Shown here: in pieces, positions 439 through 59,757 of the stretch
Layout of the letters: each line of letters starts with the position of its first letter
How positions within the stretch are numbered: the stretch's first letter is position 1
Assembly (NCBI GenBank): GCA_963828345.1
Contig: CAWHEZ010000043.1
Location: 7,918 to 71,917 of the forward strand
Direction: 5' to 3'
Source: an uncultured delta proteobacterium
Lineage (GTDB): Bacteria > Desulfobacterota > Desulfobacteria > Desulfobacterales > SpSt-501
DNA: 64,000 nt
Position numbers and translations under genes: made by a program
The notes under the pieces: generated by a model
What the model was told of the DNA's origin: nothing
Seen by the model: only the letters and a program-made list of their open reading frames with translations
Databases searched by the model: none

Positions 439-1596
439 TCAGTGCATCTTCGAGATCTCGCCGGCCGTGCGGATTTCGGCCGGAAGGTCGCCGATCTCGA
501 TCACCAGCTCCACCCCCAGGGCGAAGGCGCGCTCGATCACGTTCTCCAGCTGGATCACGTTGCCCGGCCAGCCGTACCCGAAAAGGTAGTCCATGGCGTC
601 GGGGGCGACCGAGTAGACCTTCCTGACGCTGCGGGCGTTGAACTGCTGCAGGAAGTGGTTGATCAGCAGGCAGAGGTCTTCCTTGCGCTCGCGCAGGGGC
701 GGCATGTGGATGACCGCCTCGCCGAGCAGCGCGTGCAGCTCCCTGGCCAGCAGCCCTTTGGCGAGCGCCTCCTTCACGACCCGGTTCGTCGCGGCGATGA
801 TCCGCGGCGCCCGGCGCGTGCCGGTGCGCGCGGCCTCGCGCAATTCCCCGCCGATGGCGGCCAGGTGCGCCTGGGCCTCGGCGGGCAGCTCGCAGATGTC
901 GTCCAGGAAGAGCGTGCCCTCGCCGGCGCTCTGAACCAGCTCGCGCAGCCGGTCCGGCTGCCCGGCCGGCGCGATCCCTTTCACCAGGCCCTGGCACGCG
1001 GCCGGCACGAAGGGGCTCTGCGCGCGGGAGCCGGTGCGGTGGATGACGTGGGCCGCCAGCTCCTTGCCCGTGCCGCTCTCGCCCTCGATCAGCACGTGAG
1101 GGGCGCTCGCCTGCATGCGGTCGATCACGTCGTAGATCTCCTGCATCCTCGGGCTGATCCCCACCAGCCCGCCGTACCGGTGGCGGTCCTTCACCCGCGA
1201 TTTCAGGACGATCCGTTCCTGCTTGAGGTTCTTCTCCTCGACGATGCGGTCGATGATGATCTTGAGGACGTTGAGCTTGAAGGGTTTCTGCAGGTAGTCG
1301 TAGCTGCCGAACTTCATCGCCTGGATCGCAGACTCCATCGAGCCGTGCCCCGTGACGATGATCACCTCGGTCTCCGGCCGGTACTCCTTGATGGCGGACA
1401 ACAGCTCCAGGCCGTCGATGTCCGGCATCTTGATGTCCGTGAAGACGATCTCGAAGGGGTGGTCCTTGATCATCTGCAGGGCCTTGACGCCGTTGTCCAC
1501 CACCTCGACCCGGTAGCCCACCTCGGACAGGTACTCGTGCACCATGTCGAGGATCATCCGGTCGTCGTCCACGAAGAGAATTCCTGAACCGTTCAT
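439..1596 (-). CDS. Response-regulator receiver fused to a degenerate sigma-54-type AAA+ domain (no GAFTGA loop, no DNA-binding HTH)
   Basis: REC motifs are present (VDDD, TDIKMPDIDG, VTGHG, QKPF). So are Walker A GESGTGKE, Walker B TLFLDD and PPLRERKED. The ESELFGH..GAFTGA segment is missing, and the protein ends right after the AAA+ lid. RBS GGAGGTGA lies upstream of the ATG at 1596. Confidence 0.85.
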   Translation of the reverse strand: MNGSGILFVDDDRMILDMVHEYLSEVGYRVEVVDNGVKALQMIKDHPFEIVFTDIKMPDIDGLELLSAIKEYRPETEVIIVTGHGSMESAIQAMKFGSYDYLQKPFKLNVLKIIIDRIVEEKNLKQERIVLKSRVKDRHRYGGLVGISPRMQEIYDVIDRMQASAPHVLIEGESGTGKELAAHVIHRTGSRAQSPFVPAACQGLVKGIAPAGQPDRLRELVQSAGEGTLFLDDICELPAEAQAHLAAIGGELREAARTGTRRAPRIIAATNRVVKEALAKGLLARELHALLGEAVIHMPPLRERKEDLCLLINHFLQQFNARSVRKVYSVAPDAMDYLFGYGWPGNVIQLENVIERAFALGVELVIEIGDLPAEIRTAGEISKMH

Positions 1597-1634
1597 CCGT
1601 CACCTCCGGGAGAGCAGGCGGCCCCCATGCAGGG

Positions 1635-2675
1635 TCAGCGCTTGGCCTCGGGCCGCTCGTCCAGGTTGTACCGCTTGATCTTCTCGACCAGGGTGGTGCG
1701 CTTCATCTGCAGCAGGTCGGCCGCGCGGTTCTTGACCCACCCGGCGCGTTCGAGGGCGCTCCGGATAAGGGCCTTCTCGAACTCCGCGACCGCGGTCTGG
1801 AAGGAGATGCCCTCCTCCGGCCCGGTCTTGCCCCGCGGCCGCTCGCGGGGTTCGTGATCCCGCCGGACGCTCTCGGGCAGGTCCTCCGCGGAGAGCAGCT
1901 CGCCCTCCTTCAGGACCACGACACGCTCGATCAGGTTTTTCAGCTCGCGAACGTTGCCGTGCCAGGGGTAGGCCACCAGCCGCTGCAGGGCGTCTTCCGC
2001 AACCCGCATCACCGGCCGCCCGTTCTTGCGTGCGAACTCCTCGAGGAAGTGAGCGACCAGGAAGGGGATGTCGCCCTTGCGTTCGCGCAGCGCGGGCAGC
2101 AGGATCGGGATCACGTGCAGCCGGTAGAAGAGGTCCTCCCGGAAGCTCCCCTTCTGCACCTCCTCCTCCAGGTCGCGGTGGGTGGCCGCGATGATGCGCG
2201 CGTCCACCTTGATGGTCTCCCGGCCGCCGACCCGCTCGAACTCGCCCTCCTCCAGCACCCGCAGGACCTTCACCTGCAGGTCGGGGTTCATGTCGCCGAT
2301 CTCGTCCAGGAAGATGGTCCCGCCGTGGGCCATCTCGAACTTGCCCGGCGTGTCGGCCACTGCGCCGGTGAAGGCCCCGCGGCGGTAGCCGAAGAACTCG
2401 CTCTCCAGGAGCCCCTCGGGCGTCGCCCCGCAGTTGATCTGGATCAACGGCTTGGCCCGGCGCGGCGAGCACTCGTGGATGGCCCGCGCGATCAGGCCCT
2501 TGCCCGTGCCGGTCTCGCCGTTGAGCATGATGGTCGTGTCGCTGGCGGCCACCTTCTCCACGATGCCGAAGATCTTCCGCATGGATGGGCTCTGGCCGAT
2601 GATGCCGTCGAACGCGCTCTGGCAGGGGGATCCGATCGGGATGATGTTGCCTTTGGGCAGGGGGGACCCGGTCAT
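1635..2675 (-). CDS. Sigma-54-dependent transcriptional activator, sensor-less (AAA+ plus Fis-type HTH only)
   Basis: Walker A GETGTGKG, intact [24 protein letters not shown], and a C-terminal HTH ([21 protein letters not shown]). Only about 25 aa precede the AAA+ core. I prefer the ATG at 2675 (MTGSPLP..) over the ORF start at 2753. Confidence 0.85.
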
Positions 2676-2767
2676 GGGCGTCCTTCTGCGGGCGCAGACC
2701 CGCTGTGGCTTTTCACGGTTTTTTCTGATACCAGCTTTCGGTGCAAATCGCAAATGGATGCCGCTGA

Positions 2768-5119
2768 ATGAAGCCTGAACTGCACATCGGGGTGCGCGAC
2801 CTGGTCGAGTTCGTCCTGCGTCGCGGCGACCTGAAGCACGAATTCGCCGGGTCCTCCCGGGCCGTGGACGCCGTGCGTCTGCACCAGCGCATCCAGTACT
2901 CCCGCCCCGAGAGCTATCTCCCGGAGGTCGCGGTCAGCCGCGAGATCGACACCCCCGATGTGAGGCTCACGATCGGGGGGCGGATCGACGGGGTGATCGC
3001 GGGGGTGATCCCCGTCGTCGAGGAGATCAAGACGACCCGGCGCGACCCGGCCGAGGCGATCGCGGAGGAGAACGCCCTGCACTGGGGCCAGGCCAAGGCG
3101 TACGCGTTCCTCTATGCGACCGCGCACGGCCTCGACCCGATCGGCGTCCAGCTGACCTATGCCCGCCTCGACACGGGGCGGATGCGCGAGGTCCGGCGCA
3201 CCTTTGCGCTCGCCGAGATCCGGGTCTTCTTCGACGACCTGGTCGGCCGCTACCTCGAGTGGGCCCGGCGGCTCATCGGCTGGCGCCTGCAGCGCGACGA
3301 CTCCATCCGCCGGCTCGAGTTCCCCTACCCCGCCTACCGGCCGGGGCAGCGGGAGATGATCGATGCCGTGGAACGCACCCTCCACTCCGCCGGGCGCAGC
3401 TTCATCCAGGCCGCGACCGGGATCGGCAAGACCATGGCGGTCCTGCTCCCGGCCGTGAGGTCGATCGCCGCGCAGGTGTCCGAAAAAGTCTTCTACCTCA
3501 CCGCCCGCAACACCGGCCGCCTCGCGGCGGAGACGGCCGTCGACGAGCTGAGGGCGCGGGGGCTCAGGCTCAAGAGCCTGTCGCTCACGGCCAAGGAGAA
3601 GGTCTGCGCCCACCCGGGCCGCGCCTGCACCCCGGAGGAGTGCGACGTCGCGCGCGGGCACTACGACCGGCTGCCGGACGCCCGCCGAGCGGCGTTCGAG
3701 CTGGACGCATGGACCCGCGAAACCGTGGCGGACGTCGCCCGCCGCTTCGCGGTCTGCCCGTTCGAATTCGCGCTCGAGCTCTCGACCTGGGCCGACCTGA
3801 TCGTCTGCGACTACAACTACGCGTTCGACCCGAGCGCCTACCTGCGCCGCTTCTTCGGCGACGAGCCGGGGGACTACGCCTTCCTCGTGGACGAGGCCCA
3901 CAACCTGGTCGACCGCGCGCGGGAGATGTTCTCCGCCGAGCTGCGCCGGCAGCCCGTCCTGGAGCTGCGGCGCACGGTGAAGACCGCGCTGCCCGCCGTC
4001 TACCGGGCCCTCGGCCGGGTCAACCGCTGGATGCTCGCCGCGCACACGCGCTGCGCGGACGCCGGCGCGCCCGTGGCCGACCGCGAAGCGCCCGAAGACC
4101 TGTACCCGCTGCTGCAGGAGTTTCTCGCCGCGGCCGAGGCGTGGCTCGAGCGCAACGCGCCGGCCCCGTTCCGGGAGGCGCTGCTCGAGCGCTACTTCGA
4201 GGCGGGGGCCTTCCTGCGCGTGTCCGAACGCTTCGACCGGGCCTATGCGGCCTGCTACGAAGCCGCGGGCAAGGACGTGCGCGTGCGGCTCTTCTGCATC
4301 GACCCGTCGCGGCAGCTGGCCGACGCCCTGGCTCGCGGCCGCGCGGCGGTGTTCTTCTCGGCGACGCTCGCGCCGTTCGATTACTTCAAAACCCTCCTGG
4401 CCGGGGACTCGGCCGAGACCCTGGTCCTGCCCTCGCCGTTCCCGCCCGAGAACCTGGGCATTTTCATCGCCGACCGGGTCTCCACCTACTACCGTCACCG
4501 CGACCGCACGCGGGCCGAGATCGCCCGCCTCGCGCTGGACTTCGTGCGGCCGCAGGGGGGCAACTACCTGCTCTTCTTCCCGTCCTACGCCTACCTGCGC
4601 ATGGTGCTCGAGGAATTCCGCACGCACGCGCCGCAGGTCGAGGTCGTCGTCCAGGAGTCCGGCATGAGCGAGCGGGAGCGCGAGGCCTTCCTGGCCCGCT
4701 TCGACGCCGACAACCCGCGCACGCTTGTGGGGTTCGCGGTCATGGGCGGGATCTTCGGCGAGGGCATCGACCTGGTCGGCGACCGGCTGAGCGGCGCGGG
4801 CATCGTCGGGGTCGGGCTCCCGGGCGTCTGCCTGGAACGGGAGCTGATCCGCACCTACTTCGACGAACACATCGAGCAGGGGTTCGAATACGCCTACATG
4901 TACCCCGGCATCAACCGCGTGCTGCAGGCGGCCGGCCGCGTCATCCGCTCCGATGACGACCGCGGGGTCGTGCTCCTGATCGATCAGCGCTACCGGGGCG
5001 ACGCCTACCGCCGCCTGCTGCCCGAGGGCTGGCGCCCGGCGACCGTCCGCGACGGCGCGACCTTGTCCGCGGGCCTGGAGTCGTTCTGGCGCCCCGGGCG
5101 ACCCTCCGCCCCGGTCTGA
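2768..5119 (+). CDS. DinG/XPD (Rad3)-family ATP-dependent DNA helicase with an N-terminal PD-(D/E)XK (RecB/Cas4-like) nuclease domain
   Basis: The N-terminal ~140 aa carry GRIDGV...VEEIKT...QAKAYAFLY (D / ExK / QxxxY). The helicase part has Walker A ATGIGKT, DEAH box VDEAHNL, and four Cys (VCAHPGRACTPEEC...AVCPFE) typical of the XPD Fe-S domain. Helicase C motifs are present (GIFGEGID, QAAGRVIRS). Confidence 0.85.
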   Translation: MKPELHIGVRDLVEFVLRRGDLKHEFAGSSRAVDAVRLHQRIQYSRPESYLPEVAVSREIDTPDVRLTIGGRIDGVIAGVIPVVEEIKTTRRDPAEAIAEENALHWGQAKAYAFLYATAHGLDPIGVQLTYARLDTGRMREVRRTFALAEIRVFFDDLVGRYLEWARRLIGWRLQRDDSIRRLEFPYPAYRPGQREMIDAVERTLHSAGRSFIQAATGIGKTMAVLLPAVRSIAAQVSEKVFYLTARNTGRLAAETAVDELRARGLRLKSLSLTAKEKVCAHPGRACTPEECDVARGHYDRLPDARRAAFELDAWTRETVADVARRFAVCPFEFALELSTWADLIVCDYNYAFDPSAYLRRFFGDEPGDYAFLVDEAHNLVDRAREMFSAELRRQPVLELRRTVKTALPAVYRALGRVNRWMLAAHTRCADAGAPVADREAPEDLYPLLQEFLAAAEAWLERNAPAPFREALLERYFEAGAFLRVSERFDRAYAACYEAAGKDVRVRLFCIDPSRQLADALARGRAAVFFSATLAPFDYFKTLLAGDSAETLVLPSPFPPENLGIFIADRVSTYYRHRDRTRAEIARLALDFVRPQGGNYLLFFPSYAYLRMVLEEFRTHAPQVEVVVQESGMSEREREAFLARFDADNPRTLVGFAVMGGIFGEGIDLVGDRLSGAGIVGVGLPGVCLERELIRTYFDEHIEQGFEYAYMYPGINRVLQAAGRVIRSDDDRGVVLLIDQRYRGDAYRRLLPEGWRPATVRDGATLSAGLESFWRPGRPSAPV

Positions 5120-5249
5120 CCGAGGCACGGGCGGGAACGCCCGCGCGGGGGAATCGAGAGCGCCCACAAATTGACTTCCTGAAGCAACCCGTATAGGTAT
5201 GCAGCCGTTCCACCGCCACAGAAACCGCAACACGAGTGGAGGCCGACCG

Positions 5250-5760
5250 ATGTGGACGATCGTTCCGGCAATGGTGGCCGTGCTGATGGTTTTCCCGGTT
5301 TCGGGGGTCTACGCCCAGGGCAAGGTCTACACCTGGACCGACGCGCGGGGAAACGTGCACATCACGGACACGGAACCCCCGGCCCAGGCCCGGGTGACGG
5401 ATGTGGTCGAGGACCCCGTCTCCGTCGATGCCGGGCAGCAGCGGCCGGAGCCTAAAGATCCCGTATGGCGAGCGGACTCGACGCGAGCAAGCCGAGGCGG
5501 CGGGGCAGCGGGCCATGGAAGCCGAACGCGAGGCGCAGGAGGCCGTGCGGCGCGCGGACGAACAGAGCCGCTACGCCATCGAGTACCGCAAGCGCTACAG
5601 CAACACCTCCGAGCGCCGGGAAAACTTCAAGTACAAGATCCGCGCGGAAGAGGAGAAGGCGGAAGCGCTGCGCCTGGAGGCGTTGAAAGCCATCGACCGG
5701 GCCCGCTCGGCTTCGGAGGAGGCCCGGCCCGGCCTCGCACCGCAGCCGCCCAAACCGTAG
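5250..5760 (+). pseudogene. DUF4124-like secreted protein with coiled-coil C-terminus, reading frame broken near 5440-5470
   Basis: After RBS GGAGG, an ATG at 5250 gives a signal peptide plus KVYTWTDARGNVHITD in one frame. A plausible Glu/Arg/Ala-rich coiled coil (..RREQAEAAGQRAMEAEREAQE..KYKIRAEEEKAEALRLEAL..) is in the +1 frame and ends at 5760. Each frame reads as low-complexity junk where the other looks real. Confidence 0.55.
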
Positions 5761-5771: not shown

Positions 5772-5863
5772 GGGGTGTGTTGGGTGCCGGGTGTTTGGTT
5801 TTCGTGATGAGCGGGGGCTTGCCTCTTTTCCCTTTGAACCCTTGACCCCTCGATCCCTTCAAC
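5772..5863. repeat. Composite word array: GGTGTTTGG-type words (5772-5802) plus CCCTTGA/CCCCTCGA-type words (5830-5863)
   Basis: Read directly: ggggtgtgttgggtgccgggtgtttggtttt ... ccctttgaacccttgacccctcgatcccttcaac. The two blocks are not complementary to each other. It fills the spacer between stop 5760 and the ATG at 5871. Confidence 0.7.
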
Positions 5864-10799: not shown

Positions 10800-10909
10800 C
10801 AGGGTTCAGGGTCCAGGGTGAAGGTTACAGGGTTCCGGGGGCAGGGTTCAGGAGGAAGTGAATGCATCGGGGCGTCTCTCTTTCCTGAACTCTGAACCTG
10901 CTGAACCCT
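10800..10909. repeat. Word-hairpin, GGGTTCA family
   Basis: The left arm is cagggttcagggtccagggtgaaggttacagggttccgggggcagggttcagg. The right arm is cctgaactctgaacctgctgaaccct (reverse-complement words). The right arm ends 6 nt from the cbbQ stop. Confidence 0.75.
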
Positions 10910-13818: not shown

Positions 13819-13910
13819 GGATCCTCGATGCTGGATTCTCGATGCTCGATTGCCGATGGAGGATCTGCCTGCCGCCCTTGTCGAGTATCCAGTATCAAGG
13901 ATCGAGCATC
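13819..13910. repeat. Word-hairpin, CTCGATG family, between convergent gene ends
   Basis: The left arm is ggatcctcgatgctggattctcgatgctcgattgccgatgg. The right arm is tcgagtatccagtatcaaggatcgagcatc; GATGCTCGAT and ATCGAGCATC are exact complements. The right arm touches the purN stop. Confidence 0.75.
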
Positions 13911-18596: not shown

Positions 18597-20114
18597 TCAA
18601 TAGGCTTTCGCGAACACCACCCGGTGCTGACCGGGACGGCCGCAGTAGAGGCAGCGGCCCGGGTCGCCCTCCTGCTCGAAGGGGATGCAGCGGATGGTGA
18701 CGGTCAGGTCTTCCTTGATCTTGGCCTCGCAGGCCGGGTCCCCGCACCAGCTGGATGCGGCAAAGCCGCCGTGGATCTCGGGCTTGTCCAGGTTGCGCGG
18801 CGTGAAGAAGTCGTAGAACTCGCCCTTGTCGTCGATCTGAACGGTGTTCTCGATGCGGAAGGCCTGCGCCCGGGCGAACATCCCGTTCTGGATGTCGTCC
18901 AGGATGCCGGTGACCTCGACCGTGAAGGCGTCGCGCTTCAGCGACACCCGCTCGTTGTGCGGCTTGTCGCGGCGCCCCAGGAACACCGCGTTGTCCTTGA
19001 TCTCGCGCGAGCCGATCTCGACCCGCAGCGGGATGCCTTTCTTGATCCACTCCCAGCCGCGGGCGCCGCCGATGTCGCGCGGGTCGACCTCGACCGTGAG
19101 CGGCCGGTCGTAGTACATCTTGTCCCGGAGCTCCCGGGCGAGGCTCTCGGTGTAGGCCATGACCGCCTGCCGCTCGTCGGGGTTGCGGGTGATGGGCAGC
19201 AGCACGATGTGCGCCGACGCCCCGCGGGGCGGCATGACGATCCCGTCGTCGTCCCCGTGGGTCATGATGACCCCGCCGATCAGGCGCGTGGACGCCCCCC
19301 AGGAGGTGGTCCAGGCGTACTCCTCCTTTTCCTCGGCCGACTGGAACTTGATCTGCGACGCCTTGGCGAAGTTCTGCCCGAGGAAATGGGAGGTCCCGGC
19401 CTGCAGCGCCTTGCGGTCCTGCATCATGGACTCGATGCACAGCGTGTCCACGGCCCCCGGGAAGCGCTCGGCCGCCGTCTTGCGGCCCCGGATGACCGGC
19501 ATGGCCAGGACCTCTTCGGACAGGCGCGCGTAGATGTCCAGCATCATCATCGTCCGCTCCCAGGCCTCCTCGCGCGTGGCATGAGCCGTGTGGCCCTCCT
19601 GCCAGAGGAACTCGCTCGTGCGCAGGAAAATCCGCGTGCGCATCTCCCAGCGCACGACGTTCCCCCACTGATTCAGCACGATCGGCAGGTCGCGGTAGCT
19701 GCTGATCCACTTCGAAAAAGAATCCGCGATAATGGTTTCGGAGGTGGGACGCACCACCAGGGGCTCGGCCAGCACACCGGCCGGCACGAGCTCGCCCCCC
19801 CGCTTCTCCAGCCGGTGGTGGGTCACCACGGCGCACTCCTTGGCGAAGCCTTCGACGTGCTCGGCCTCCTTCTGCATGAAGCTCAGCGGGATGAACAGCG
19901 GGAAATAGGCGTTCTTGACCCCGGTCGCCTTGAACATGCGATCCATGGAGTGCATGATGTTTTCCCAGAGGGCGTAGCCCCAGGGCTTGATGATCATGCA
20001 TCCCCGCACCGGGGACCGTTCGGCCATGTCGGACGCCTTGATGACCTGCTGGTACCACTCGGGGTAATCCTCGGCGCGGGTCGGGGAAATCGCGGATTTC
20101 GGTTTCTTGCTCAT
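18597..20114 (-). CDS. proS: Proline--tRNA ligase (archaeal/eukaryote-like short type)
   Basis: Class II aaRS motifs with the typical N-terminus ..EDYPEWYQQVIKASDMAE.SPVRGCMIIKPWGYALWE. The C-terminal Zn-binding-like domain ends in ..FAKAY. Confidence 0.95.
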   Translation of the reverse strand: MSKKPKSAISPTRAEDYPEWYQQVIKASDMAERSPVRGCMIIKPWGYALWENIMHSMDRMFKATGVKNAYFPLFIPLSFMQKEAEHVEGFAKECAVVTHHRLEKRGGELVPAGVLAEPLVVRPTSETIIADSFSKWISSYRDLPIVLNQWGNVVRWEMRTRIFLRTSEFLWQEGHTAHATREEAWERTMMMLDIYARLSEEVLAMPVIRGRKTAAERFPGAVDTLCIESMMQDRKALQAGTSHFLGQNFAKASQIKFQSAEEKEEYAWTTSWGASTRLIGGVIMTHGDDDGIVMPPRGASAHIVLLPITRNPDERQAVMAYTESLARELRDKMYYDRPLTVEVDPRDIGGARGWEWIKKGIPLRVEIGSREIKDNAVFLGRRDKPHNERVSLKRDAFTVEVTGILDDIQNGMFARAQAFRIENTVQIDDKGEFYDFFTPRNLDKPEIHGGFAASSWCGDPACEAKIKEDLTVTIRCIPFEQEGDPGRCLYCGRPGQHRVVFAKAY

Positions 20115-21277
20115 CGTCGGTGCATGTCCTCTGGAGTCTCAGTGTTTGGTTTTTGGTGTTTGGTGTTTGGGTCCTTCGGTCCCTTTAGTCCCTTTGGTCC
20201 CTTTGGTCCAAGTTGCTCTTCCATCGCCCGCACTTCCGCGAGGAGCACGTCCAGGAGCTGCCCCTCGGGGAACTTCTTCACCACCCGTCCCTTCCGGAAC
20301 AGGACGCCCACTCCGTCGCCGCCGGCGACCCCGATGTCGGCCTCGCGCGCCTCCCCCGGGCCGTTGACGACGCAGCCCATGATGGCGATGCGGATCGGGG
20401 CGACCGACCCCGCCAGGGCCTGCTCGACCTGCTCGACGATCCGGAACAGGTCGATGCGGGTGCGCCCGCAGGTCGGGCAGGCGATGATCTCCGGGCCGCG
20501 CTGCCGGATACCGAGCGCGCGCAGGATCTCGAACCCGGCCCGGACTTCCTCGACCGGGTCGCGGGTCAGCGACACGCGCAGGGTGTCGCCGATCCCCTCG
20601 GCCAGCAGCATGCCGATGCCGAGCGCCGACTTGACCAGCCCTGAAAACAGGGTGCCGGCCTCGGTCACCCCGAGGTGCAGCGGCAGGTCCGTCCGGGCGG
20701 ACAGCAGCCGGTAGGCCGCCACGGTGCGCGGGACATCGGATGCCTTGAGAGACACCTTGAGATCGTGGAAATCGAACGAGCGCAGCAGGTCGATGTGGCG
20801 CAGGGCGCTCTCGACCATGCCCTCGGGCGTGGCGCCATTATATTTTTTAAGGATGTCCTTTTCAAGCGACCCCGCGTTCACCCCGATGCGGATGGGGATG
20901 CCGCGCTCCCGGGCGCAGTCGGCGACCGCGCGCACCTTCCGGGCCCCGCCGATATTCCCCGGGTTGATCCGCAGACCGTCGGCGCCGGCTCGCGCGGCCG
21001 CGATGGCCAGGCGGTGGTCGAAGTGGATGTCGGCGAGGACCGGGATGCGCACCTGCGCCTTGATGCGGGCGAGGGCGCCGGCCGCATCGGCGTCCGGGAC
21101 CGCCACCCGGACGATGTCGCAACCGGCCGCCTCCAGGCGCCGGATCTGGGCGACCGTCGCGGCGACATCCGGGGTCGGCGTGTTGGTCATGGACTGGACC
21201 GTCACCGGGGCGCCCCCGCCGACGGCCACCCCGCCCACCGTGATCGCCCGCGTGGCCTTGCGCCGGATCGGGTTCAT
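20111..21277 (-). CDS. ispG: 4-hydroxy-3-methylbut-2-en-1-yl diphosphate synthase (flavodoxin), with a repeat-encoded C-terminal tail
   Basis: The N-terminus is MNPIRRKATRAITVGGVAVGGGAPVTVQSMTNT. The Cys ligands are present (ACPTCGR, GCVVNGPGE). I prefer the ATG at 21277. The last ~32 codons read through the word array 20142-20209, and the stop overlaps the proS ATG (ATGA). Confidence 0.9.
   Translation of the reverse strand: MNPIRRKATRAITVGGVAVGGGAPVTVQSMTNTPTPDVAATVAQIRRLEAAGCDIVRVAVPDADAAGALARIKAQVRIPVLADIHFDHRLAIAAARAGADGLRINPGNIGGARKVRAVADCARERGIPIRIGVNAGSLEKDILKKYNGATPEGMVESALRHIDLLRSFDFHDLKVSLKASDVPRTVAAYRLLSARTDLPLHLGVTEAGTLFSGLVKSALGIGMLLAEGIGDTLRVSLTRDPVEEVRAGFEILRALGIRQRGPEIIACPTCGRTRIDLFRIVEQVEQALAGSVAPIRIAIMGCVVNGPGEAREADIGVAGGDGVGVLFRKGRVVKKFPEGQLLDVLLAEVRAMEEQLGPKGPKGLKGPKDPNTKHQKPNTETPEDMHRR
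20142..20209. repeat. Composite word array (GTGTTTGG words plus GGTCCCTTT words) lying inside the ispG 3' end
   Basis: Read directly: gtgtttggtttttggtgtttggtgtttgg followed by gtccttcggtccctttagtccctttggtccctttggtcc. No complementary arm is nearby. Confidence 0.7.
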
Positions 21278-21616
21278 GCGATTAGTCGCCTCCCGGTTCA
21301 CGCGTCCGGACCGCCTCCCGGGGCTCCCAGCACCCGGACGGCCGGTGGTTTTTGCCCCAGGGGTTGCCAAGCGCACCCCGCCTGTGGTAGGGTCCGTGCA
21401 CCAACATTCAATCGGTTGTCCCAACGAAGGTCCTGTTCGTTTCACGCGCACCCGGCACCCCACCCGGATCGCGCACCGCATACCCGAGTCCCAGGCAGAA
21501 CGCCGACCCGATCGCTGCCGGATTGTTGCGCACCGCCCATCCTTTCACGAGAGCGAAGGGCGGATCTTCGGGTTTCATAACAGACACGTGGGGGCACATC
21601 AAGCAGGGAGTTTGAC

Positions 21617-23531: not shown

Positions 23532-23551
23532 ATCGGTCCGATCGGACCGAT
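23532..23551. repeat. Perfect 20-nt palindrome, GATCGGACC family, between convergent gene ends
   Basis: ATCGGTCCGATCGGACCGAT equals its own reverse complement. It lies in the 40-nt gap between the mltF and MBL-hydrolase stops. Confidence 0.8.
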
Positions 23552-23560
23552 CAAAGCCCT

Positions 23561-24247: not shown

Positions 24248-24742
24248 TCAATCGTCTGTGTCCTGATCCTCTTCGTCCCCGTCCTCTTCCGCCGTGTCCT
24301 CACCCGTCGACTCCGGGCAAGGGAGCCCGGCCTCGCCGCTCTCCACCGCTGCGCGGATGCTGTCCACGATGCCGTTGATGAAGGCCCCGGAATCGTCCGT
24401 CCCGAACTTCTTGCCGATGTCCACCGCCTCGTTGATGCTGACCTTCGCGGGGATGTCGCGGCAGCAGACGAGCTCGAAGACGGCAATGCGCATGACGTTG
24501 CGGTCGACGCACGACATCCGACCCAGGCTCCAGTTCTCGGAGAAACGCTCGACCAGGTGATCGAGCTCGTCCTTGCACGCCAGGACGCCGTTGACCAGCC
24601 GCAGGAAGAACGGGCGCACCTCGGGCTTGGGGGCGAAGTTCGCGCAGAAGCGCCCGAACGTCTCTTCCGAGAACTCCTTCTGCATGTCCATGAAAAACAG
24701 CGCCTGCATGGCCAGTTCGCGCGCTTTGCGGCGGGTTCCCAT
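24248..24742 (-). CDS. nusB: Transcription antitermination factor NusB
   Basis: The N-terminus RRKARELAMQALF and RMSCVDRNVMRIAVFEL..INEAVDIGKKFG are typical of NusB. It has an acidic C-terminal tail and sits downstream of ribH. Confidence 0.95.
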   Translation of the reverse strand: MGTRRKARELAMQALFFMDMQKEFSEETFGRFCANFAPKPEVRPFFLRLVNGVLACKDELDHLVERFSENWSLGRMSCVDRNVMRIAVFELVCCRDIPAKVSINEAVDIGKKFGTDDSGAFINGIVDSIRAAVESGEAGLPCPESTGEDTAEEDGDEEDQDTDD

Positions 24743-24746
24743 GGAG

Positions 24747-25211
24747 TCAGACGGCGGCGATCAGGTTGGCCATCTCCACCGCGGACATGGCGGCGCCGAA
24801 GCCCTTGTTGTCCAGCTTGGCGCCGGCGCGCTCGATCGCCTGCTCGATGGTGTCCACCGTGATCACGCCGAAAATGACCGGCAGCCCGGTTTCCATCATG
24901 ACGGCGGCGATGCCCTTGGAGCTCTCGGCCGCGACGAAGTCGAAGTGGGGGGTGGCGCCGCGGATCACCGCCCCCAGGCACACGATGGCATCGAAGCGCT
25001 TGCTTGCGGCCACGCGCTTGGCGACCAGCGGGATCTCGAAGGCGCCCGGCACCTTGAAGATCTCGATGTCCTGGTCCTTGGCCCCGCAGCGGTTCAGCGC
25101 GTCGAGCGCGCCGCCCACCAGCTTCTCGGTGATGAAGTCGTTGTAGCGGCTCGCCACAATGGCGAACTTCTTCCCTTCCGCGTTCAGCTTCCCCTCAATG
25201 ATTTTCGGCAT
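24747..25211 (-). CDS. ribH: 6,7-dimethyl-8-ribityllumazine synthase
   Basis: 154 aa, [56 protein letters not shown]. Confidence 0.95.
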
Positions 25212-25273
25212 CCTCAGCTCCTTCCCTAAATAATGGAACCCGGCAACACCTGTTCCGGTTGGTCGAGATCAGG

Positions 25274-25395
25274 CAAATCCGAAATCCGAATACCGAAATT
25301 CGAAACAAATCCCAATATCGAACCCGGAAACCAATGCCGGGCGCACGACCTGAGGCTCCGCCTGTTTCGGATTTCGAATTTCGTATTTCGAATTT
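25274..25395. repeat. Word-hairpin, CGAAAT family (copy 1), inside the rib operon
   Basis: The left arm is caaatccgaaatccgaataccgaaattcgaaacaaa (25274-25309). The right arm is ctgtttcggatttcgaatttcgtatttcgaatttt (25362-25395) and abuts the ribBA stop codon. It is homologous to 63813-63941. Confidence 0.8.
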
Positions 25396-26607
25396 TCATC
25401 CTTTCCCTAGCGTCAGCAAATGCCCCATCTTCAGTTTCTTGCACTCGAGGTAGCACTGGTTGAACTCGTTGGGCTCGACCTCAATCGGGACCTGGTCGAC
25501 GACCCGCAGCCCGTAGCCCTGGAGGCCCACCATTTTCTTGGGGTTGTTGGTCATCAGGCGCATCTTGCGCACCCCCAGGTCGGCCAGGATCTGGGCCCCG
25601 ATCCCGTAATTGCGCATGTCGGGCTGGAACCCCAGCTCGACGTTGGCCTCGACCGTGTCGAATCCCTTTTCCTGCAGCGCGTAGGCCCTGATCTTGTTGA
25701 CGAGGCCGATCCCGCGGCCCTCCTGGCGGATGTAGAGCAGCACGCCGGCCCCCTCGGCTTCCATCATGGCCATGGCCCGGTGCAACTGGGGGCCGCAGTC
25801 GCAGCGCATCGAGCCGAAGATGTCCCCGGTCAGGCACTCCGAGTGCACCCGCACCAGCACAGGGATCTCGGGGTCGATCGCCCCCTTCACCATGGCGAAG
25901 TGCAGCAGGTCGTCGACGTCGTTCTCGTACACGACGGCCCGAAACTCGCCCGCGATGACGGTGGGAATCACGGCCTCGGCCGAGCGGTGCACGAAGGACT
26001 CGGTCCGCATGCGGTACTCGATCAGGTCGGGAATCGTACAGATGCCGATCCCGAGCTGCGTGCTGATCTTCTCGAGGGCCGGCATGCTGGCCATGGAGCC
26101 GTCCTCGTCCATGATGCCGCAGATGACCCCGGAGGGCTTCAGCCCCGCCAGCCGCGCGAGGTCGACCGATCCCTCGGTCTGCCCGGTCCGGACGATCACG
26201 CCGCCGCCCCGGGCGCGCAGCGGGAATACGTGGCCGGGCCGCACGAGGTCGGCCGGACGTGTGCCGTCCGCCACCGCGGTCAGGATGGTCATGGCCCGGT
26301 CGGCGGCCGAGACCCCGCCGGTCACCCCCTGGCGGGCGTCGATCGAAACCGTGAAGCCGGTCCCGTAGCGCGAGGTGTTCGTGTCCACCATGGGCGGCAG
26401 CTCGAGCTGGTCGGCCTTTTCCCCGGTCAGCGACAGACAGATGAGCCCGCGGCCGTTCTTGGCCATGAAGTTCACGGCCTCGGGCGTGACCTTCTCGGCC
26501 GCCATGCAGAAGTCCGCCTCGCTCTCCGGCTCGTTGTCGTCGGCGAGGATGACCATGCGCCCGGCGCGCACATCCTCGATGGCCTGTGCGATGCTGATAC
26601 GACCCAT
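25396..26607 (-). CDS. ribBA: Bifunctional 3,4-dihydroxy-2-butanone-4-phosphate synthase / GTP cyclohydrolase II
   Basis: A DHBP synthase N-half ([18 protein letters not shown]..) and a GTP cyclohydrolase II C-half ([26 protein letters not shown]). Confidence 0.95.
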
Positions 26608-26655
26608 TGCGTAAGCTCCTGAAAAGCGCGCATCCGCGCCTGCGGTTCGTTCGTC

Positions 26656-27306
26656 CTATTTCAGATAGCCGGACTTGGCCAGCAGCTCCAGGGTGACCCC
26701 GGCCGGCTTGGCGTCGGTGCGGGTCGAGAGGAACTTCTCGACGTACTTGCCGATCATGTCGGTTTCGATGTTGACGCGCTCCCCCGTCTGCTTGAACCCG
26801 ATCGTCGTGAGCACCGAGGTGTGCGGGATGACGGCGACCGCGAAACTCCGGGCGTCCAGCGTGTTGATCGTGAGGCTGACCCCGTCGACTGCCACCGAGC
26901 CTTTGATGATCATCTGCCGCGCAAGCTCCTCGGGCACGACGACGGTGACCACCACCGCGTTGCCGGCCGGCTGGCGCGACGCGATCACCCCCGTGCCGTC
27001 CACGTGCCCGGCCACGAGGTGCCCGTCGATGCGGTCCGAAAGCCTGAGCGCGCGCTCCAGATTCACGCGCTCGCCGGTGTGCGCCTCCGCCAGAGTCGTC
27101 CGGGCAACGCTCTCGGGCGAGACGTCCGCCTCGAAGCGCCGGTCCGCCAGATGGACCGCCGTGAGGCAGGCGCCGTTCACGGCAATGCTGTCGCCGACCC
27201 GGGTCCCCTGCAGGCTGAAGTCGGACTGGATCGTCAGGCGCTTGCCCTGCCCCGACGGCCGGACCCCCGCAATCGTCCCCAACCCCTCGATGATGCCGGT
27301 GAACAT
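26656..27306 (-). CDS. ribE: Riboflavin synthase (alpha chain)
   Basis: Starts MFTGIIEGLGTI at the ATG at 27306. Two lumazine-binding repeats are present (GDSIAVNGACLT / GSVAVDGVSLT). Confidence 0.9.
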   Translation of the reverse strand: MFTGIIEGLGTIAGVRPSGQGKRLTIQSDFSLQGTRVGDSIAVNGACLTAVHLADRRFEADVSPESVARTTLAEAHTGERVNLERALRLSDRIDGHLVAGHVDGTGVIASRQPAGNAVVVTVVVPEELARQMIIKGSVAVDGVSLTINTLDARSFAVAVIPHTSVLTTIGFKQTGERVNIETDMIGKYVEKFLSTRTDAKPAGVTLELLAKSGYLK

Positions 27307-27394
27307 GGATGCGTCCCACCCCCCGTGGATGTCGACCGCGGGTCCGCTCGGACCGCACCCCGACCGCGTTAACTTAAGGATCGTGGCGCGATCT

Positions 27395-28507
27395 TCAACC
27401 GCCCGGACCGGCGGCCTTCGCAACGTAGCCCTCGATCAGCACGTCGTCGTCGAAGCGGCGGGTGCGGATCCGCTCCAGCCGGAGGCAGTCCCGCATGCGG
27501 GCCGCCCCCGGGCCGCTGCAGATCGGGATCCCGTCGTCCCCGCCTAAAATGAGCGGGGCGTAGAAGAAACAGACCTTGTCGACGATGCCCGCGCGGAAGG
27601 CCGACGACAGGACCCGGCCCCCGCCCTCGACGAGCAGGCTCTGGATCCCCATCCCGCCCAGCTGCGCCACCAGCGGCACCAGATCGATCCAACCGTCCCG
27701 GGTCTCGGCCTCGAGCACCCGGACCCCCCGGCGCTCGATGCGCGCCCTGGCTTCGGCCGGCACCCCGCGGCCCGCGACGACCCAGGTCTCGGCGGCGGAG
27801 CCGTGGTTCAGCACCCGGGCCGCGGGATCGATGCGCAGGGTCGCGTCCAGCACGATGCGCACCGGGTCCCTGGGATCGCGGTCGCCCACGCGTGCGGTCA
27901 GCAGCGGGTCGTCCGCGGCCACCGTCCCGATCCCCACCAGAATGGCGTCCATCGCGTAGCGCAGCTCGTGCACGTAGGCCCGCGCGCGTTCGCCGGTCAC
28001 CCACTTGGAATCCATTGTCCGGGTCGCGATGCGCCCGTCCAGCGTGGCGGCGCACTTGGCGGTCACGAACGGCCGGCCGGTGCGGATGTGGGTGATGAAG
28101 GCCTCGTTCAGCTCCTCGGCCTCTGCCGCGCACACCCCGAGCGTGACCTCGACCCCCTCCCGGCGCAGCACCTCGGCCCCTCCGGCCGCGCGGGGGTTCG
28201 GGTCGCGCATACCGACGACCACCCGCCGGATTCCGGCCTCCAGGATCTTGCGGGTGCAGGGCGGGGTGCGTCCGGTATGGGTGCAGGGTTCGAGCGAGAC
28301 GTAGAGGGTGCCCGCGCGCGCCCGCGCGCCCGCGGCGTCGATCGCGTAGACCTCTGCGTGCGGCCCGCCGGCGAACCGGTGGTAGCCGCTGCCCACTATC
28401 GCGCCGTCGGCGACGACCACCGCGCCGACCATCGGATTGGGGGAGGTGGTCCCCCGCCCGCGCGCGGCCAGCTCGAGCGCCACTCGCATGTAATCTTCGT
28501 CAGTCAT
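27395..28507 (-). CDS. ribD: Bifunctional diaminohydroxyphosphoribosylaminopyrimidine deaminase / 5-amino-6-(5-phosphoribosylamino)uracil reductase
   Basis: A CMP/dCMP-type deaminase motif (HAEV..PCTHTGRTPPC) followed by the RibD C-terminal reductase domain. Confidence 0.95.
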   Translation of the reverse strand: MTDEDYMRVALELAARGRGTTSPNPMVGAVVVADGAIVGSGYHRFAGGPHAEVYAIDAAGARARAGTLYVSLEPCTHTGRTPPCTRKILEAGIRRVVVGMRDPNPRAAGGAEVLRREGVEVTLGVCAAEAEELNEAFITHIRTGRPFVTAKCAATLDGRIATRTMDSKWVTGERARAYVHELRYAMDAILVGIGTVAADDPLLTARVGDRDPRDPVRIVLDATLRIDPAARVLNHGSAAETWVVAGRGVPAEARARIERRGVRVLEAETRDGWIDLVPLVAQLGGMGIQSLLVEGGGRVLSSAFRAGIVDKVCFFYAPLILGGDDGIPICSGPGAARMRDCLRLERIRTRRFDDDVLIEGYVAKAAGPGG

Positions 28508-28517
28508 GCAAACGAAC

Positions 28518-28601
28518 GTGTTAAGTTTTAAGTGTTACGTGTTAAGTGAAAATAGGCCGCCCATTGTTTCTACTTAAAACCTAAAACTTAACACTTAAAA
28601 C
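28518..28601. repeat. Word-hairpin, GTTAAGT family: AT-rich element between nrdR and ribD
   Basis: The left arm is gtgttaagttttaagtgttacgtgttaagtg. The right arm is cttaaaacctaaaacttaacacttaaaac. By my count 27 of 84 nt are G+C. The right arm ends 2 nt from the nrdR stop. Confidence 0.8.
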
Positions 28602-28603
28602 TT

Positions 28604-29071
28604 TCATTCCTGCGCCTTCTCCGCGCTCAGCAGCTTTTTCAGCTCGAGCACGAAATCGTTGACGTCCTTGAACTCGCGGTAGACCGAGGCGAAGCGGACA
28701 TAGGCCACGTCGTCCAGCTCGTGCAGCTTGGCCATGATCTTCTCGCCGACCACGGCGGCGGGGATTTCCTTGTCTTCGGCCTCGCGGAGGTCGCGCTCCA
28801 TGTCCTCGATGAACTCCTCGATCGTGTTCATGCTGATGTTGCGCTTTTCGCAGGCCTTGAGCATGCCCGAGCGCACCTTGTCCCGGCTGAAGAGCTCCCG
28901 CCGGCCGTCCTTCTTCATGATCATGATCGGGATCTCTTCGATGTGCTCATAGGTCGTGAAGCGCCGTTTGCAGGTCAGGCATTCCCGACGACGGCGGATC
29001 ACGCTGGCGTCCTTGCTCAACCTGGAGTCGATCACCTTGTTCTCAATCTCGCTGCAGTACGGACACTTCAT
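28604..29071 (-). CDS. nrdR: Transcriptional repressor NrdR
   Basis: MKCPYC..zinc ribbon (CPYC...CLTC) plus an ATP-cone. 155 aa. Confidence 0.95.
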   Translation of the reverse strand: MKCPYCSEIENKVIDSRLSKDASVIRRRRECLTCKRRFTTYEHIEEIPIMIMKKDGRRELFSRDKVRSGMLKACEKRNISMNTIEEFIEDMERDLREAEDKEIPAAVVGEKIMAKLHELDDVAYVRFASVYREFKDVNDFVLELKKLLSAEKAQE

Positions 29072-29190
29072 CCCTCATGCCCTCCCCGTTCGTGGTAAGC
29101 GCTGGTTGCCAGACGAACACCGCCGCACCGAACCCATGACATCGCTTCACGGTTGAACGAATTCAAGGGGGCGGCCGCACCCGCCGGATC

Positions 29191-29682
29191 TCAGGCCGGG
29201 ATTCCCTCGGCCCGCCCCGTCCCGGCTCCCCCGCTGCCGGCAACCCGGATCATGGCGACCCCGGCCTCGGCCAGCATCTCGCGCGCGAGCTCGTCCGCGT
29301 ACCCCGCCTCGTAGTAGATGGTCGTGATCCCGGCGTTGATGAGCATCTTGGCGCAGATCGAGCAGGGCTGGGTCGTGCAGAAGAGCACCGCCCCTTTGAC
29401 CGACACACCGTGGTACGCGGCCTGGATGATCGCGTTCTGCTCCGCGTGGATGCCGCGGCAGAGCTCGTGGCGCATGCCCGACTGCACCTTCAGCTGCTCC
29501 CGCAGGCACCCGACTTCGGCGCAGTGCCGCACGCCCGAAGGCGCACCGTTGTAACCCGTCGAAAGGATGCGCTTGTCCTTCACGATCACGGCCCCGACCG
29601 CACGCCGCGTGCAGGTCGTCCGTTTGGCGACCAGGATCGTGATGTCCATGAAATACGTTTCCCAGGAGGGCCGCTCGTTCAT
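29191..29682 (-). CDS. dCMP (deoxycytidylate) deaminase, ComEB-like
   Basis: Zinc motifs HAEQNAI and [13 protein letters not shown]. Starts [14 protein letters not shown] at the ATG at 29682. Confidence 0.9.
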
Positions 29683-31400: not shown

Positions 31401-31433
31401 GGTGTTTCCTCCTGGTTGATGGTGGATATCAAA

Positions 31434-31519
31434 GGTTCAAGGTTCAGGGTTCAAGGTTCAGGGTTCAAAGGCTCGCGGTCGTGTCAACCGTGAACCCTTG
31501 AACCGTGAACCTGGAACCC
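31434..31519. repeat. Word-hairpin, GGTTCA family, between fabG and acpP
   Basis: The left arm is (GGTTCAA/GGTTCAG) x5 with an exact 7-nt period. The right arm is caaccgtgaacccttgaaccgtgaacctggaaccc and ends 7 nt from the fabG stop. Confidence 0.8.
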
Positions 31520-36190: not shown

Positions 36191-36264
36191 TGAGGGATCG
36201 TCTAGCGGCAGGACGACGGGTTCTGGCCCCGTTAACCTAGGTTCGAATCCTAGTCCCTCAGCCA
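36191..36264 (+). tRNA. tRNA-Gln (anticodon CUG), CCA encoded
   Basis: Folded by hand. Acceptor TGAGGGA/TCCCTCA, D stem GTCT/GGAC, anticodon stem ACGGG/CCCGT with loop TTCTGGC, T stem CTAGG/CCTAG with loop TTCGAAT. Discriminator G, then CCA. Confidence 0.9.
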
Positions 36265-38196: not shown

Positions 38197-38227
38197 CATC
38201 CGACCGATCGGACCGATCGGTCGGATG
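38197..38227. repeat. 31-nt palindrome, GATCGGACC family, between convergent gene ends
   Basis: CATCCGACCGATCGG-A-CCGATCGGTCGGATG, with two perfect 15-nt arms. It lies in the 56-nt gap between the glnS and DUF218-protein stops. Confidence 0.8.
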
Positions 38228-38248
38228 GGTCGGATCGCAACGCCGCCC

Positions 38249-44750: not shown

Positions 44751-44813
44751 CCCACACACCAAACTTGCAATGCCAACTACCGAATACTAAACACCAAACA
44801 CCAAAAAAACACC
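44751..44813. repeat. One-armed CCAAACACC word array in the Memo-like / nifU divergent region
   Basis: Read directly: ccacacaccaaacttgcaatgccaactaccgaatactaaacaccaaacaccaaaaaaacacc. No complementary GT arm is nearby. Confidence 0.6.
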
Positions 44814-47067: not shown

Positions 47068-47105
47068 CCAACCGTTGAACCGTGAACCCCTGAACCGTTG
47101 AACCT
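47068..47105. repeat. One-armed GAACC word array (GGTTCA family, C-strand) next to the hypB stop
   Basis: ccaaccgttgaaccgtgaacccctgaaccgttgaacc closely resembles the right arm at 31485-31519. It ends 7 nt from the hypB stop. Confidence 0.65.
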
Positions 47106-48148: not shown

Positions 48149-48260
48149 GGTTGTGTTAGGTGTTTGGTGTTTCGTGTTTGGTATGAGTGTGTGGCGCTGG
48201 ACTGTGTTCGAGAGGTCCTGTTGCAGGTCCCAAACACTAAACACCAGACACTAAACACCA
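48149..48260. repeat. Word-hairpin, GGTGTTTGG/CCAAACACC family, between sucD and hypA
   Basis: The left arm is ggttgtgttaggtgtttggtgtttcgtgtttggta (48149-48183). The right arm is cccaaacactaaacaccagacactaaacacca (48229-48260) and ends 2 nt from the sucD stop. The left arm ends 9 nt from the hypA ATG. Confidence 0.8.
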
Positions 48261-50347: not shown

Positions 50348-50378
50348 GAGCCCCCCGGAGTCGCTTTGTCGTTGCATC

Positions 50379-50410
50379 GGTCCTATCGGTCCGATCGGAC
50401 CGATAGGACC
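50379..50410. repeat. Perfect 32-nt palindrome, GATCGGACC family, inside the operon
   Basis: GGTCCTATCGGTCCGATCGGACCGATAGGACC equals its own reverse complement. It lies between the 5S-subunit stop (50424) and the sucC start (50347). Confidence 0.8.
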
Positions 50411-50423
50411 TATCTTCCTTCTC

Positions 50424-58474: not shown

Positions 58475-59756
<1,282 letters not shown>

Positions 59757-59757
59757 T

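Follow-up and report, generated by a model that had tools for sequence, protein, structure and literature searches.

What is the AT-rich hairpin that separates ribBA from ribH in the riboflavin operon of an uncultured delta proteobacterium, and does it serve that operon? The hairpin (element 1) lies on contig CAWHEZ010000043.1, in the 64,000-nucleotide stretch analysed here as a whole and called the window below. A second hairpin built of the same CGAAAT words (element 2) stands in the same window, between an ABC-ATPase-like gene and a racemase gene. Taken together, the data make it likely that both are derivatives, devoid of an open reading frame (ORF), of a widespread hairpin element of the intervening-sequence (IVS) type, related to their parent as miniature inverted-repeat transposable elements (MITEs) are to theirs, and that they are selfish rather than regulators of riboflavin synthesis. 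The two elements are:

25274-25395, minus strand: element 1, CGAAAT-word hairpin without ORF, placed between ribBA and ribH and transcribed together with the rib genes
63813-63943, minus strand: element 2, ORF-less CGAAAT-word hairpin between the ABC-ATPase-like gene and the racemase gene

The limits of element 1 are those of the original prediction; the end that it gave for the second hairpin (63941) falls about 2 nt short of the real one at 63943. Element 1 consists of two arms of 33 nt (25275-25307 and 25363-25395) with a 55-nt loop between them, and its minus-strand RNA folds with −45.9 kcal/mol. Element 2 exhibits two arrays of about 40 nt (63813-63859 and 63908-63943) that enclose a loop of about 50-60 nt. 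Its core arms lie at 63831-63852 and 63912-63932 (arm length range 22-40 nt), and it folds with −41 kcal/mol. In both, terminal inverted repeats give a long stem, the loops (55-59 nt) contain no ORF, and the arms are made of imperfect CGAAATN / NATTTCG heptamers, every arm being reported by Tandem Repeats Finder (TRF) as a period-7 array, AAATCCG / TTTCGAA. The 16-mer arm word TTTCGGATTTCGAATT showed, with up to 3 mismatches, 10 matches in the window, all of them within the two elements, compared to 0.11 in shuffles. The elements are 78% identical over aligned columns and 70% over their full length, in line with the long shared blocks that had been noticed. As had also been noticed, they are A/T-rich islands, with a GC content of 47% (element 1) and 35% (element 2) compared to 67% for the window. 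Finally, nhmmer profiles built from the 5' and 3' arms of unrelated, gene-bearing metagenomic copies matched only elements 1 and 2 in the 64 kb, with E values of 1e-12 to 1e-13, so that both elements are homologous in their arms to gene-bearing elements.

The extent of the family was investigated by scanning one genome per species with a 17-mer from the arm, TGTTTCGGATTTCGAAT, a query that favours canonical copies and whose listed matches do not include the source genome. The 17-mer was found at at least 119 genome loci in at least 12 phyla. Among the matches listed, as judged from record titles, about 39 come from metagenome-assembled genomes (MAGs) of Desulfobacterota or 'delta' bacteria, 25 from Planctomycetota and 19 from Patescibacteria, the remainder belonging to Verrucomicrobiota, Acidobacteriota, Omnitrophota, Bacteroidota, Armatimonadota and others; a few are chance coding matches, for instance to a conserved coaD motif. 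Significant arm-profile matches were obtained at 101 of these loci and amount to 116 elements, 13 loci holding two or more. Most of the listed loci are full hairpins of the form AAATCCGAAATTCGAAGCACGAAATTCGAAACAAAT..CAAATGACCAAAAC-loop-GTTTTGGTCATTTG..ATTTGTTTCGGATTTCGAATTTCGTGCTTCGAATTT. A Desulfatiglandales copy (78% identity) and a Saccharibacteria copy (74%) are closer to element 2 than is element 1 (70%), and the two elements of the window are not each other's closest relatives. A literature search with the sequence strings returned only chance primer matches.

These loci, together with the more than 592 gene-bearing metagenome loci described below, bear out the earlier view of a dispersed family rather than local slippage, and the family is wider than was then supposed. 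The opposite view, that independent slippage converged on similar AT-rich words without common descent, can appeal to the tandem heptamers of the arms, to the many different words carried by other spacers of the window and to the account in PMC4679880 of Mrazek et al. 2007, by which heptanucleotide repeats are the commonest long simple repeats in bacteria. It is very improbable for two elements that also share non-periodic parts (GAAACAAAT..., CAAATGAC.. and TTGTTTCGG), that match a common profile with an E value of 1e-12, that have the same architecture as at least 119 other loci and whose arms are linked to one protein subfamily. Slippage is thus contradicted as the source of the CGAAAT family; as a mode of stem growth after insertion it is possible.

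The full-length form of the element was recognized in four listed matches from four phyla, L009 (Gemmataceae), L099 (Chthoniobacter), L105 (Saccharibacteria) and L118 (Omnitrophota), in which the arms are 350-415 nt apart around an ORF of about 120 codons. The loop proteins are 59-61% identical to the reference sequence, that of L009, and match PF05635 ('23S rRNA intervening sequence protein'), TIGR02436 ('four helix bundle protein') and PDB 2RLD; the core members also match PF22296 (bAvd-like). A metagenome scan with the loop-protein alignment gave more than 592 loci, 80 of which were fetched and analysed. At nearly all of the 80 loci the gene is flanked by the arms, with ...AAATCCGAAGCACGAAATCCGAAACAAATTCAA-ATG before it and TGTTTTGAACATTTGAATTTTGATATTGTTTCGGATTTCGATATTCGGATTT after it. 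The stem is about 65 bp long and composed of 7-nt units (5' arm YCGAAAT..., 3' arm ...ATTTCGR). The ATG is found inside this stem, since the start codon and the first six or so codons (ATGACCAAAATTCAAAAC) pair with the sequence just past the stop codon of the same gene. The ORF-less hairpins retain this start-codon segment (CAAATGACC.. / ..GGTCATTTG), and element 2 keeps CAAATGACTCAAAC, which matches the start-codon region of the full-length element; this is what deletion of the interior of the ORF would leave. We are confident, short of certainty, that the ORF-less hairpins, elements 1 and 2 among them, derive from gene-bearing copies in a MITE-like manner. At two Saccharibacteria loci (L022 1496-2004 and L052 3953-4579), rplO-like and rpsG-like genes are bracketed by arrays of the same word (AATTAGATC; TTAGTCT); there, the genes between the matching arrays are host genes and not PF05635 genes.

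The full-length element encodes only the PF05635 protein and no transposase. Additionally, no reverse transcriptase and no template repeat/variable repeat (TR/VR) pair adjoins the elements examined, PADLOC gave no defence-system match, and a phage collection gave one weak partial match. This bears on the possibility that the hairpins are like repetitive extragenic palindromic sequences (REPs) and the mosaic elements formed by them (BIMEs), or are classical MITEs, moved in trans by a REP-associated tyrosine transposase (RAYT) or an insertion sequence (IS) transposase encoded elsewhere. The likeness is real: the hairpins are short, palindromic, intergenic and multi-copy, with copies that lack an ORF, and they share with the REP/BIME elements of enterobacteria and the MITEs of the Correia and ERIC (enterobacterial repetitive intergenic consensus) type the small size, the palindrome, the residence in operon spacers and the co-transcription; for Correia and ERIC hairpins, cleavage by RNase III or an effect on mRNA stability has been reported. 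However, neither elements 1 and 2 nor the family consensus has the conserved GTAG-type head, the arms consist of heptamers over 33-65 nt, a target-site duplication was not observed, the family is spread across phyla, and the parent encodes an Avd-like four-helix-bundle protein and nothing else, rather than a RAYT or transposase. Such an origin is therefore highly unlikely. CRISPR-like arrays, riboswitches, terminators and REP elements were each considered as a class for the hairpins and rejected on their membership features.

Where else does this hairpin reside? At L073 (Patescibacteria) a CGAAAT hairpin is inside the large-subunit (LSU) rRNA gene, as an insertion of 157 nt where the Rfam model has 8. 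The insertion site is the loop of helix 9 (model positions about 150-178) and coincides with the hairpin at 3116-3291. A second 23S rRNA insertion at this locus (2877-2997, 120 nt) is a heptamer hairpin with ATGAGNN / NNCTCAT words and without ORF. Besides, a CGAAAT element directly abuts a tmRNA gene at L081 (1560-2072) and another abuts a tRNA gene at L139 (1867-2016), so that the family also adjoins stable-RNA genes processed by RNases.

The closest known system is the 23S rRNA IVS with an S23p ORF of Coxiella burnetii and Leptospira (PMC4990558). In Coxiella the IVS forms a stem-loop that RNase III cuts; its loop contains the S23p ORF, and its 5' stem is composed of tandem heptamers, GACAGAT, in variable number; excision or cleavage by RNase III is known for the IVSs of Coxiella, Salmonella and Leptospira (PMC4990558). 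In the same way, a survey of rRNA insertions in bacteria of the candidate phyla radiation (CPR) found 23S_rRNA_IVP ORFs in 16S and 23S inserts alike. The CGAAAT family shares with these IVSs the long inverted-repeat stem, its tandem heptamers in variable number and a loop ORF of PF05635 that starts within the stem or close to it, and its hairpin is itself found in helix 9 of L073; it is an IVS-type hairpin element. That elements 1 and 2 are members of it is, in our judgement, very likely. They differ from the rRNA IVSs in having lost the ORF and in residing in intercistronic spacers of mRNA, not in a 23S rRNA helix (9, 25 or 45), and RNase III excision would extend to them by analogy.

The position of the elements with respect to genes was then examined. 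The neighbouring genes in the window are:

25396-26607, minus strand: ribBA, DHBP synthase / GTP cyclohydrolase II (PF00926, PF00925)
24747-25211, minus strand: ribH, lumazine synthase (PF00885), starting 62 nt downstream of element 1
63944-64000, minus strand: 3' end of the upstream ABC-ATPase-like ORF, C-terminus ...FKNPKSQRTKDFLGQILK and stop
62667-63773, minus strand: putative Asp/Glu-racemase-like gene, N-terminus MADKVIGILGGMGPEAT..., assigned to its family by eye from the sequence

The TGA stop of ribBA (TCA on the plus strand, 25396-25398) abuts base 25395 of element 1, and the TAA stop of the ABC-ATPase-like ORF (63944-63946, C-terminus ...FLGQILK) abuts base 63943 of element 2. The distance, proposed to be 0-2 nt, is 0 nt for both. 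Downstream, ribH, nusB and further genes come close behind element 1 on the same strand, and the racemase-like gene starts about 39 nt from element 2. The racemase-like ORF (62667-63773, minus strand) is in frame for about 140 residues and again near its C-terminus (..GAEGIITGCTELPLVL..), and the middle 50 or so residues resemble the family only in another frame (ORF 63056-63334). The reading frames would imply two compensating frameshifts, from a pseudogene or an assembly error.

The same placement is found throughout the family. Gene calls in the fetched loci were crude, ORF-based and noisy in GC-rich loci, and only clear cases were counted. At the 80 metagenome loci, the genes on either side were oriented (+,+) with respect to the loop ORF in 42 cases, (+,-) in 7, (-,+) in 5 and (-,-) in 1. 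Measured from the upstream stop, the ATG of the loop gene lies most often 38-46 nt away, a sharp mode that corresponds to a left arm placed directly past the stop, and a co-oriented ORF ends 25 nt or less from the arm in at least 41 of about 60 well-formed elements. For the ORF-less copies in tandem gene contexts, 17 of 27 lie within 15 nt of the upstream stop, as do all seven hairpins of the window between co-directional genes (0-8 nt, see below). The claim that copies follow stop codons therefore holds for the family as a whole. The co-orientation and the stop-to-ATG spacing show that the family lives in operons: the full-length element sits in co-directional intercistronic spacers, right past the upstream stop, and is read through from the promoter of the host operon.

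The claim of a constrained orientation fared less evenly. It stands for the gene-bearing copies (42 versus 1). Orientation is indeterminable for the ORF-less copies, since, whichever strand of a near-perfect inverted repeat is read, a CGAAAT arm is met first: in each element of the window, the physical left arm scored 41-42 bits with the 5'-arm profile and 43-46 bits with the 3'-arm profile. The common orientation attributed to elements 1 and 2 is largely a consequence of this palindromic symmetry, the sole hint of it, a weak one, being an identity of 70% in the same orientation versus 62% when one element is reversed.

Is element 1 a fixed part of the riboflavin operon? The exact RibBA protein is found on three metagenome contigs, where the ribBA-ribH spacer is the same. 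At 91% RibBA identity (L123) the spacer contains the same hairpin, at 87% (L124) a GGGTTCR-word hairpin, at 85% (L125 and L126) a single CGAAAT arm, and at 82% (L127) it is 38 nt long and without hairpin. The ribE-ribBA spacer, empty in the window, contains GTTTAAA / GTGTTAA-word hairpins in L124 and L126; the GTGTTAA word is present in the window in the nrdR-ribD spacer instead. Spacers that are filled, filled with another word, reduced to a remnant or empty point to an insert that comes and goes, and not to a conserved regulator of the operon.

The original prediction had suggested that the element modulates the relative expression of operon segments. In its strongest form this would be an evolved cis-regulatory hairpin, which sets the ribBA:ribH ratio by stabilising the upstream mRNA, by stalling termination or by masking the ribosome-binding site downstream. 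The intercistronic position of element 1, directly against a stop codon, is as expected of such a hairpin, and E. coli REP elements near stop codons have been reported to affect expression. The spacers at 82-87% RibBA identity, however, have no such element or a hairpin of unrelated words, the same family is found in unrelated operons of more than 10 phyla and in 23S rRNA, the second copy of the window is in an unrelated operon, and no Rfam family was found at the elements above the gathering threshold. Over the whole window, Rfam 15 at gathering score gave a tRNA at 36191-36261 as its sole match, the element showing sub-threshold chance matches only and no family at E-value thresholds, and around the nrdR-ribD-ribE-ribBA-ribH-nusB cluster (24700-29200) it found neither a flavin mononucleotide (FMN) riboswitch nor another family. 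Considering the variable spacers and the related hairpins elsewhere in the operon, a dedicated role in rib regulation is not supported, and a cis-regulator of this kind is improbable. An incidental effect of element 1 on the processing of the operon mRNA is plausible.

An intrinsic terminator or attenuator between ribBA and ribH would also be a long hairpin downstream of a stop codon. The stem of element 1, however, is AU-rich and has no U-tract, and ribH, nusB and more genes follow closely on the same strand. A terminator and promoter scan of 24700-29200 found nothing at element 1. We give this explanation almost no weight.

By which mechanism, then, would the element act and persist? On the analogy of the rRNA IVSs, cleavage of the operon mRNA by RNase III is the mechanism that we infer to be best supported, although whether mRNA copies are processed in this way is, in our estimate, slightly short of an even chance. 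Elements 1 and 2 would be co-transcribed with ribBA-ribH and with the ABC-ATPase-racemase pair, and would fold in the mRNA into long AU-rich duplexes. Such duplexes may be RNase III substrates as are the rRNA IVSs of Coxiella, Leptospira and Salmonella, in which case the cut would separate the ribBA and ribH segments of the mRNA. The terminating ribosome is expected to melt the base of the stem, which abuts the stop codon. In gene-bearing copies, the ATG hidden in the stem some 40 nt downstream could thereby become accessible, and the loop gene would be translated in a manner coupled to the upstream gene. Such coupling would explain the phasing to the stop codon, and the ORF-less copies would simply inherit the position. 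The 7-nt units would be best explained by stem growth by slippage and concerted correction of the two arms, which would give each element lineage its own word. The loop protein is homologous to Avd, whose positively charged, pentameric barrel resembles S23p, and a natural hypothesis is that it binds the repeat stem of its own element; a study of diversity-generating retroelements (DGRs) has sought RNA stem-loops that bind Avd (bioRxiv 10.1101/2023.10.23.563531). For the rib operon the element would be selfish or near-neutral, any effect on the ribBA:ribH ratio being a by-product. We regard a selfish or mobile element as the likelier state of affairs.

Several results weigh against this reading. 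The 64-kb window and about 70 kb of related contigs yielded no PF05635 gene, so that a protein acting in trans, if needed, is unseen there, and RNase III cleavage is known from rRNA IVSs and for no mRNA copy. Neither a target-site duplication nor a transposition mechanism was seen when filled and empty rib spacers were compared, the flanks being too diverged to decide. Element 1 and the L123 copy are 90% identical with no indels. By comparison, the four-fold degenerate sites of ribBA and ribH show 77-82% identity, and the rest of the ribBA-ribH spacer, which does have indels, about 68%. Conservation above four-fold sites and the remaining spacer speaks for the cis-regulatory hairpin discussed above; it suggests some constraint or gene conversion and might reflect a function at the level of the host. 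Moreover, no wobble asymmetry between strands was detected: 31 hairpins of known transcript sense exhibited 46 G·U pairs in sense versus 55 in antisense (p = 0.43), hence no signature of selection on an RNA fold specifically as opposed to a DNA palindrome.

The last result is what would be expected of an element acting at the DNA level with no role for RNA, i.e. a cruciform or single-stranded DNA hairpin, which might serve as a site for recombination or one linked to replication, or as an array to which the four-helix-bundle protein binds. Such an element would show mismatches that are symmetric between strands (46 versus 55) and arms that evolve in concert, with whole-word changes from CGAAAT/ATTTCG to CTAAAT/ATTTAG, as expected of conversion. 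Within the CGAAAT subfamily the arm words do change together, 34 loci having CGAAA/TTTCG, 7 CTAAA/TTTAG, 1 ACAAA/TTTGT and 1 a mixed pair, so that left and right words agree in 42 of the 43 typed loci. Symmetric mismatches and concerted word change point to homogenisation at the DNA level. However, the strong co-orientation of gene-bearing copies with host transcription, their phasing to the upstream stop and the family member tolerated inside 23S rRNA point to a life within the transcript. A purely DNA-level element is therefore unlikely, though it deserves to be kept in mind.

The CGAAAT pair is not isolated in the window. About a dozen intergenic structures with arms of tandem 7-9-nt units, each with its own word, were found by TRF and an inverted-repeat search, among them:

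28518-28603, minus strand: GTGTTAA / TTAACAC hairpin between the nrdR stop (28604) and the ribD start (28507), 0 nt past the stop
31432-31518, minus strand: GGTTCAR / YTGAACC hairpin, 8 nt past the stop of the upstream gene (31527)
48153-48258, minus strand: GTGTTTG / CAAACAC hairpin, 4 nt past the stop at 48263
55543-55638, minus strand: hairpin of the 8-nt word AGGGGTCR / YGACCCCT, overlapping the stop codon at 55637
59674-59757, minus strand: repeat-built spacer with AGGGGTCR x4 then GGGCAAAC x3, directly past the stop at 59758

On a simple gene map based on third-position GC content (GC3), the seven window hairpins between co-directional genes all start 0-8 nt past the upstream stop. The two arrays of the spacer 59674-59757 are complementary only in part, and a word similar to that of 55543-55638 flanks a PF05635 gene at L200. 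Several hairpins with different words in one window mean that the CGAAAT pair is one word family inside a broader class in this genome.

Other arrays were observed in the window. Solo arms or weakly paired 7-8-nt arrays are found at 5830-5859, 47070-47104, 61011-61038, 44789-44805, 10800-10900 and 13819-13900 (words CCCTTGAA, AACCGTTG, TGGTGTT, AAACACC, CAGGGTT and GATGCTC), adjoining gene starts or stops; the solo arms are probably decayed halves of the same hairpin class. The minus-strand ORF 20111-21481 runs at its 3' end through a pair of neighbouring arrays at 20142-20209 (GTGTTTG x4, followed by CCTTTGGTC x4) and would gain a C-terminal tail of GPK repeats; from the reading frame, a repeat array appears to reach into coding sequence. 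Three copies were seen of a palindromic, GC-rich 9-mer array (ATCGGACCG / CGGTCCGAT), at 23532-23552, 38198-38237 and 50376-50414, two between convergent genes and one in an operon spacer. It is a separate small repeat family, possibly terminator-like.

Does the pairing of repeat-built arms and a PF05635 gene extend beyond the CGAAAT word? The iterated hidden Markov model (HMM) of the subfamily missed other PF05635 subfamilies, and such genes were located by their flanking arrays and then confirmed with Pfam. Seven PF05635 genes were met incidentally in the fetched loci, all between inverted short-period arrays and each with a different word. Three of the seven were scanned and gave Pfam E values of 1e-28 to 1e-43, two of these three also matching PF22296 (bAvd-like). 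Their array words are:

L200, one gene: GGGGTCA
L118, three further genes: AGTCGTA, GATACGA and GGTGACT
L105, one gene: TTAAGAT
L026, one gene: GGGTGAAT, 12 units
L144, one gene: AGGGCAC

At L118 (Omnitrophota, 1194-5467), four PF05635 elements with the words GATACGA, AGTCGTA, GGTGACT and CGAAAT occupy successive spacers within 6.7 kb.

Additionally, four 'four helix bundle protein' genes of cultured bacteria in PLSDB plasmids were found between inverted short-period arrays, again with different words; over these four and the seven incidental genes, the units are mostly heptamers:

Nostoc punctiforme PCC 73102 plasmid: AATTCGC x4 / GCGAATT x4
Nostoc flagelliforme plasmid: AATTCAA x4 / TTTTGAA x4
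Anabaena cylindrica PCC 7122 pANACY.01 (L209 1192-1539): GTAAAAA-type arrays
Chondrinema litorale plasmid (L211 1000-1670): CAGT/AACTG-type words, element between the genes of a resistance-nodulation-division (RND) adaptor and an RND permease

The pANACY.01 gene lies between cas2 and cas1, in opposite orientation to both, and the L211 arms contain AACTG/CAGTT words, TAACTGA among them. TAACTGA is an unexplained repeat heptamer in Beggiatoaceae, Cyanobacteria and Bacteroidetes (PMC4679880).

The TAACTGA repeats and the cyanobacterial short tandemly repeated repetitive (STRR) sequences described there (PMC4679880) resemble the window elements in being intergenic tandem heptamers near start or stop codons, with a patchy spread across phyla that suggests horizontal transfer. 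The 'four helix bundle protein' genes on the plasmids of Nostoc and Anabaena stand between inverted arrays of short period, which are heptamers in both Nostoc records. The words, however, differ, and the published accounts concern repeats in direct orientation and not arrays paired in inverted orientation around PF05635 genes. The elements of the window have the heptamer period of STRRs but none of the STRR1-3 words, and their host appears to be Desulfobacterota-like, not a heterocystous cyanobacterium; they may work like STRRs without being members. Avd, the DGR accessory protein (PF22296, bAvd-like), belongs to the same fold family as the loop proteins. Unlike a DGR, the elements examined have no reverse transcriptase or TR/VR beside them, and a role in retro-mobility would be conjecture.

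Ribosomal RNA intervening sequences with S23p ORFs have been on record since the early 1990s, and we know of no function or mode of spread for them. Heptanucleotide repeats such as STRR and TAACTGA are a long-standing oddity of bacterial genomes, and 'four helix bundle protein' genes are annotated in multiple plasmid records without explanation. A literature search, with most subscription journals outside its reach, returned nothing linking PF05635 genes, repeat-built hairpins outside rRNA and heptanucleotide repeats. We raise, as a tentative and rather doubtful generalisation, that PF05635 genes and repeat-built hairpins might form one very widespread, unrecognised class of selfish RNA-borne element, which would colonise rRNA helices and the first nucleotides past stop codons in operons across most bacterial phyla, leave ORF-less hairpins behind and account for much of the unexplained excess of heptanucleotide repeats, STRR-type arrays included. 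An Avd-like pentamer would recognise its own stem and mediate propagation, possibly via excised RNA and a host reverse transcriptase.

The same hairpin family is found in three forms, as an insertion in 23S rRNA, as a stop-phased, gene-bearing insert in operons and as an ORF-less hairpin, and these tie together rRNA IVSs, 'four helix bundle protein' genes and heptanucleotide repeats. The cutting of operon mRNAs by RNase III, the binding of an Avd-like pentamer to its own stem and a spread across phyla without transposase thereby become testable questions. For annotation, such hairpins should not be taken for operon-specific regulators.

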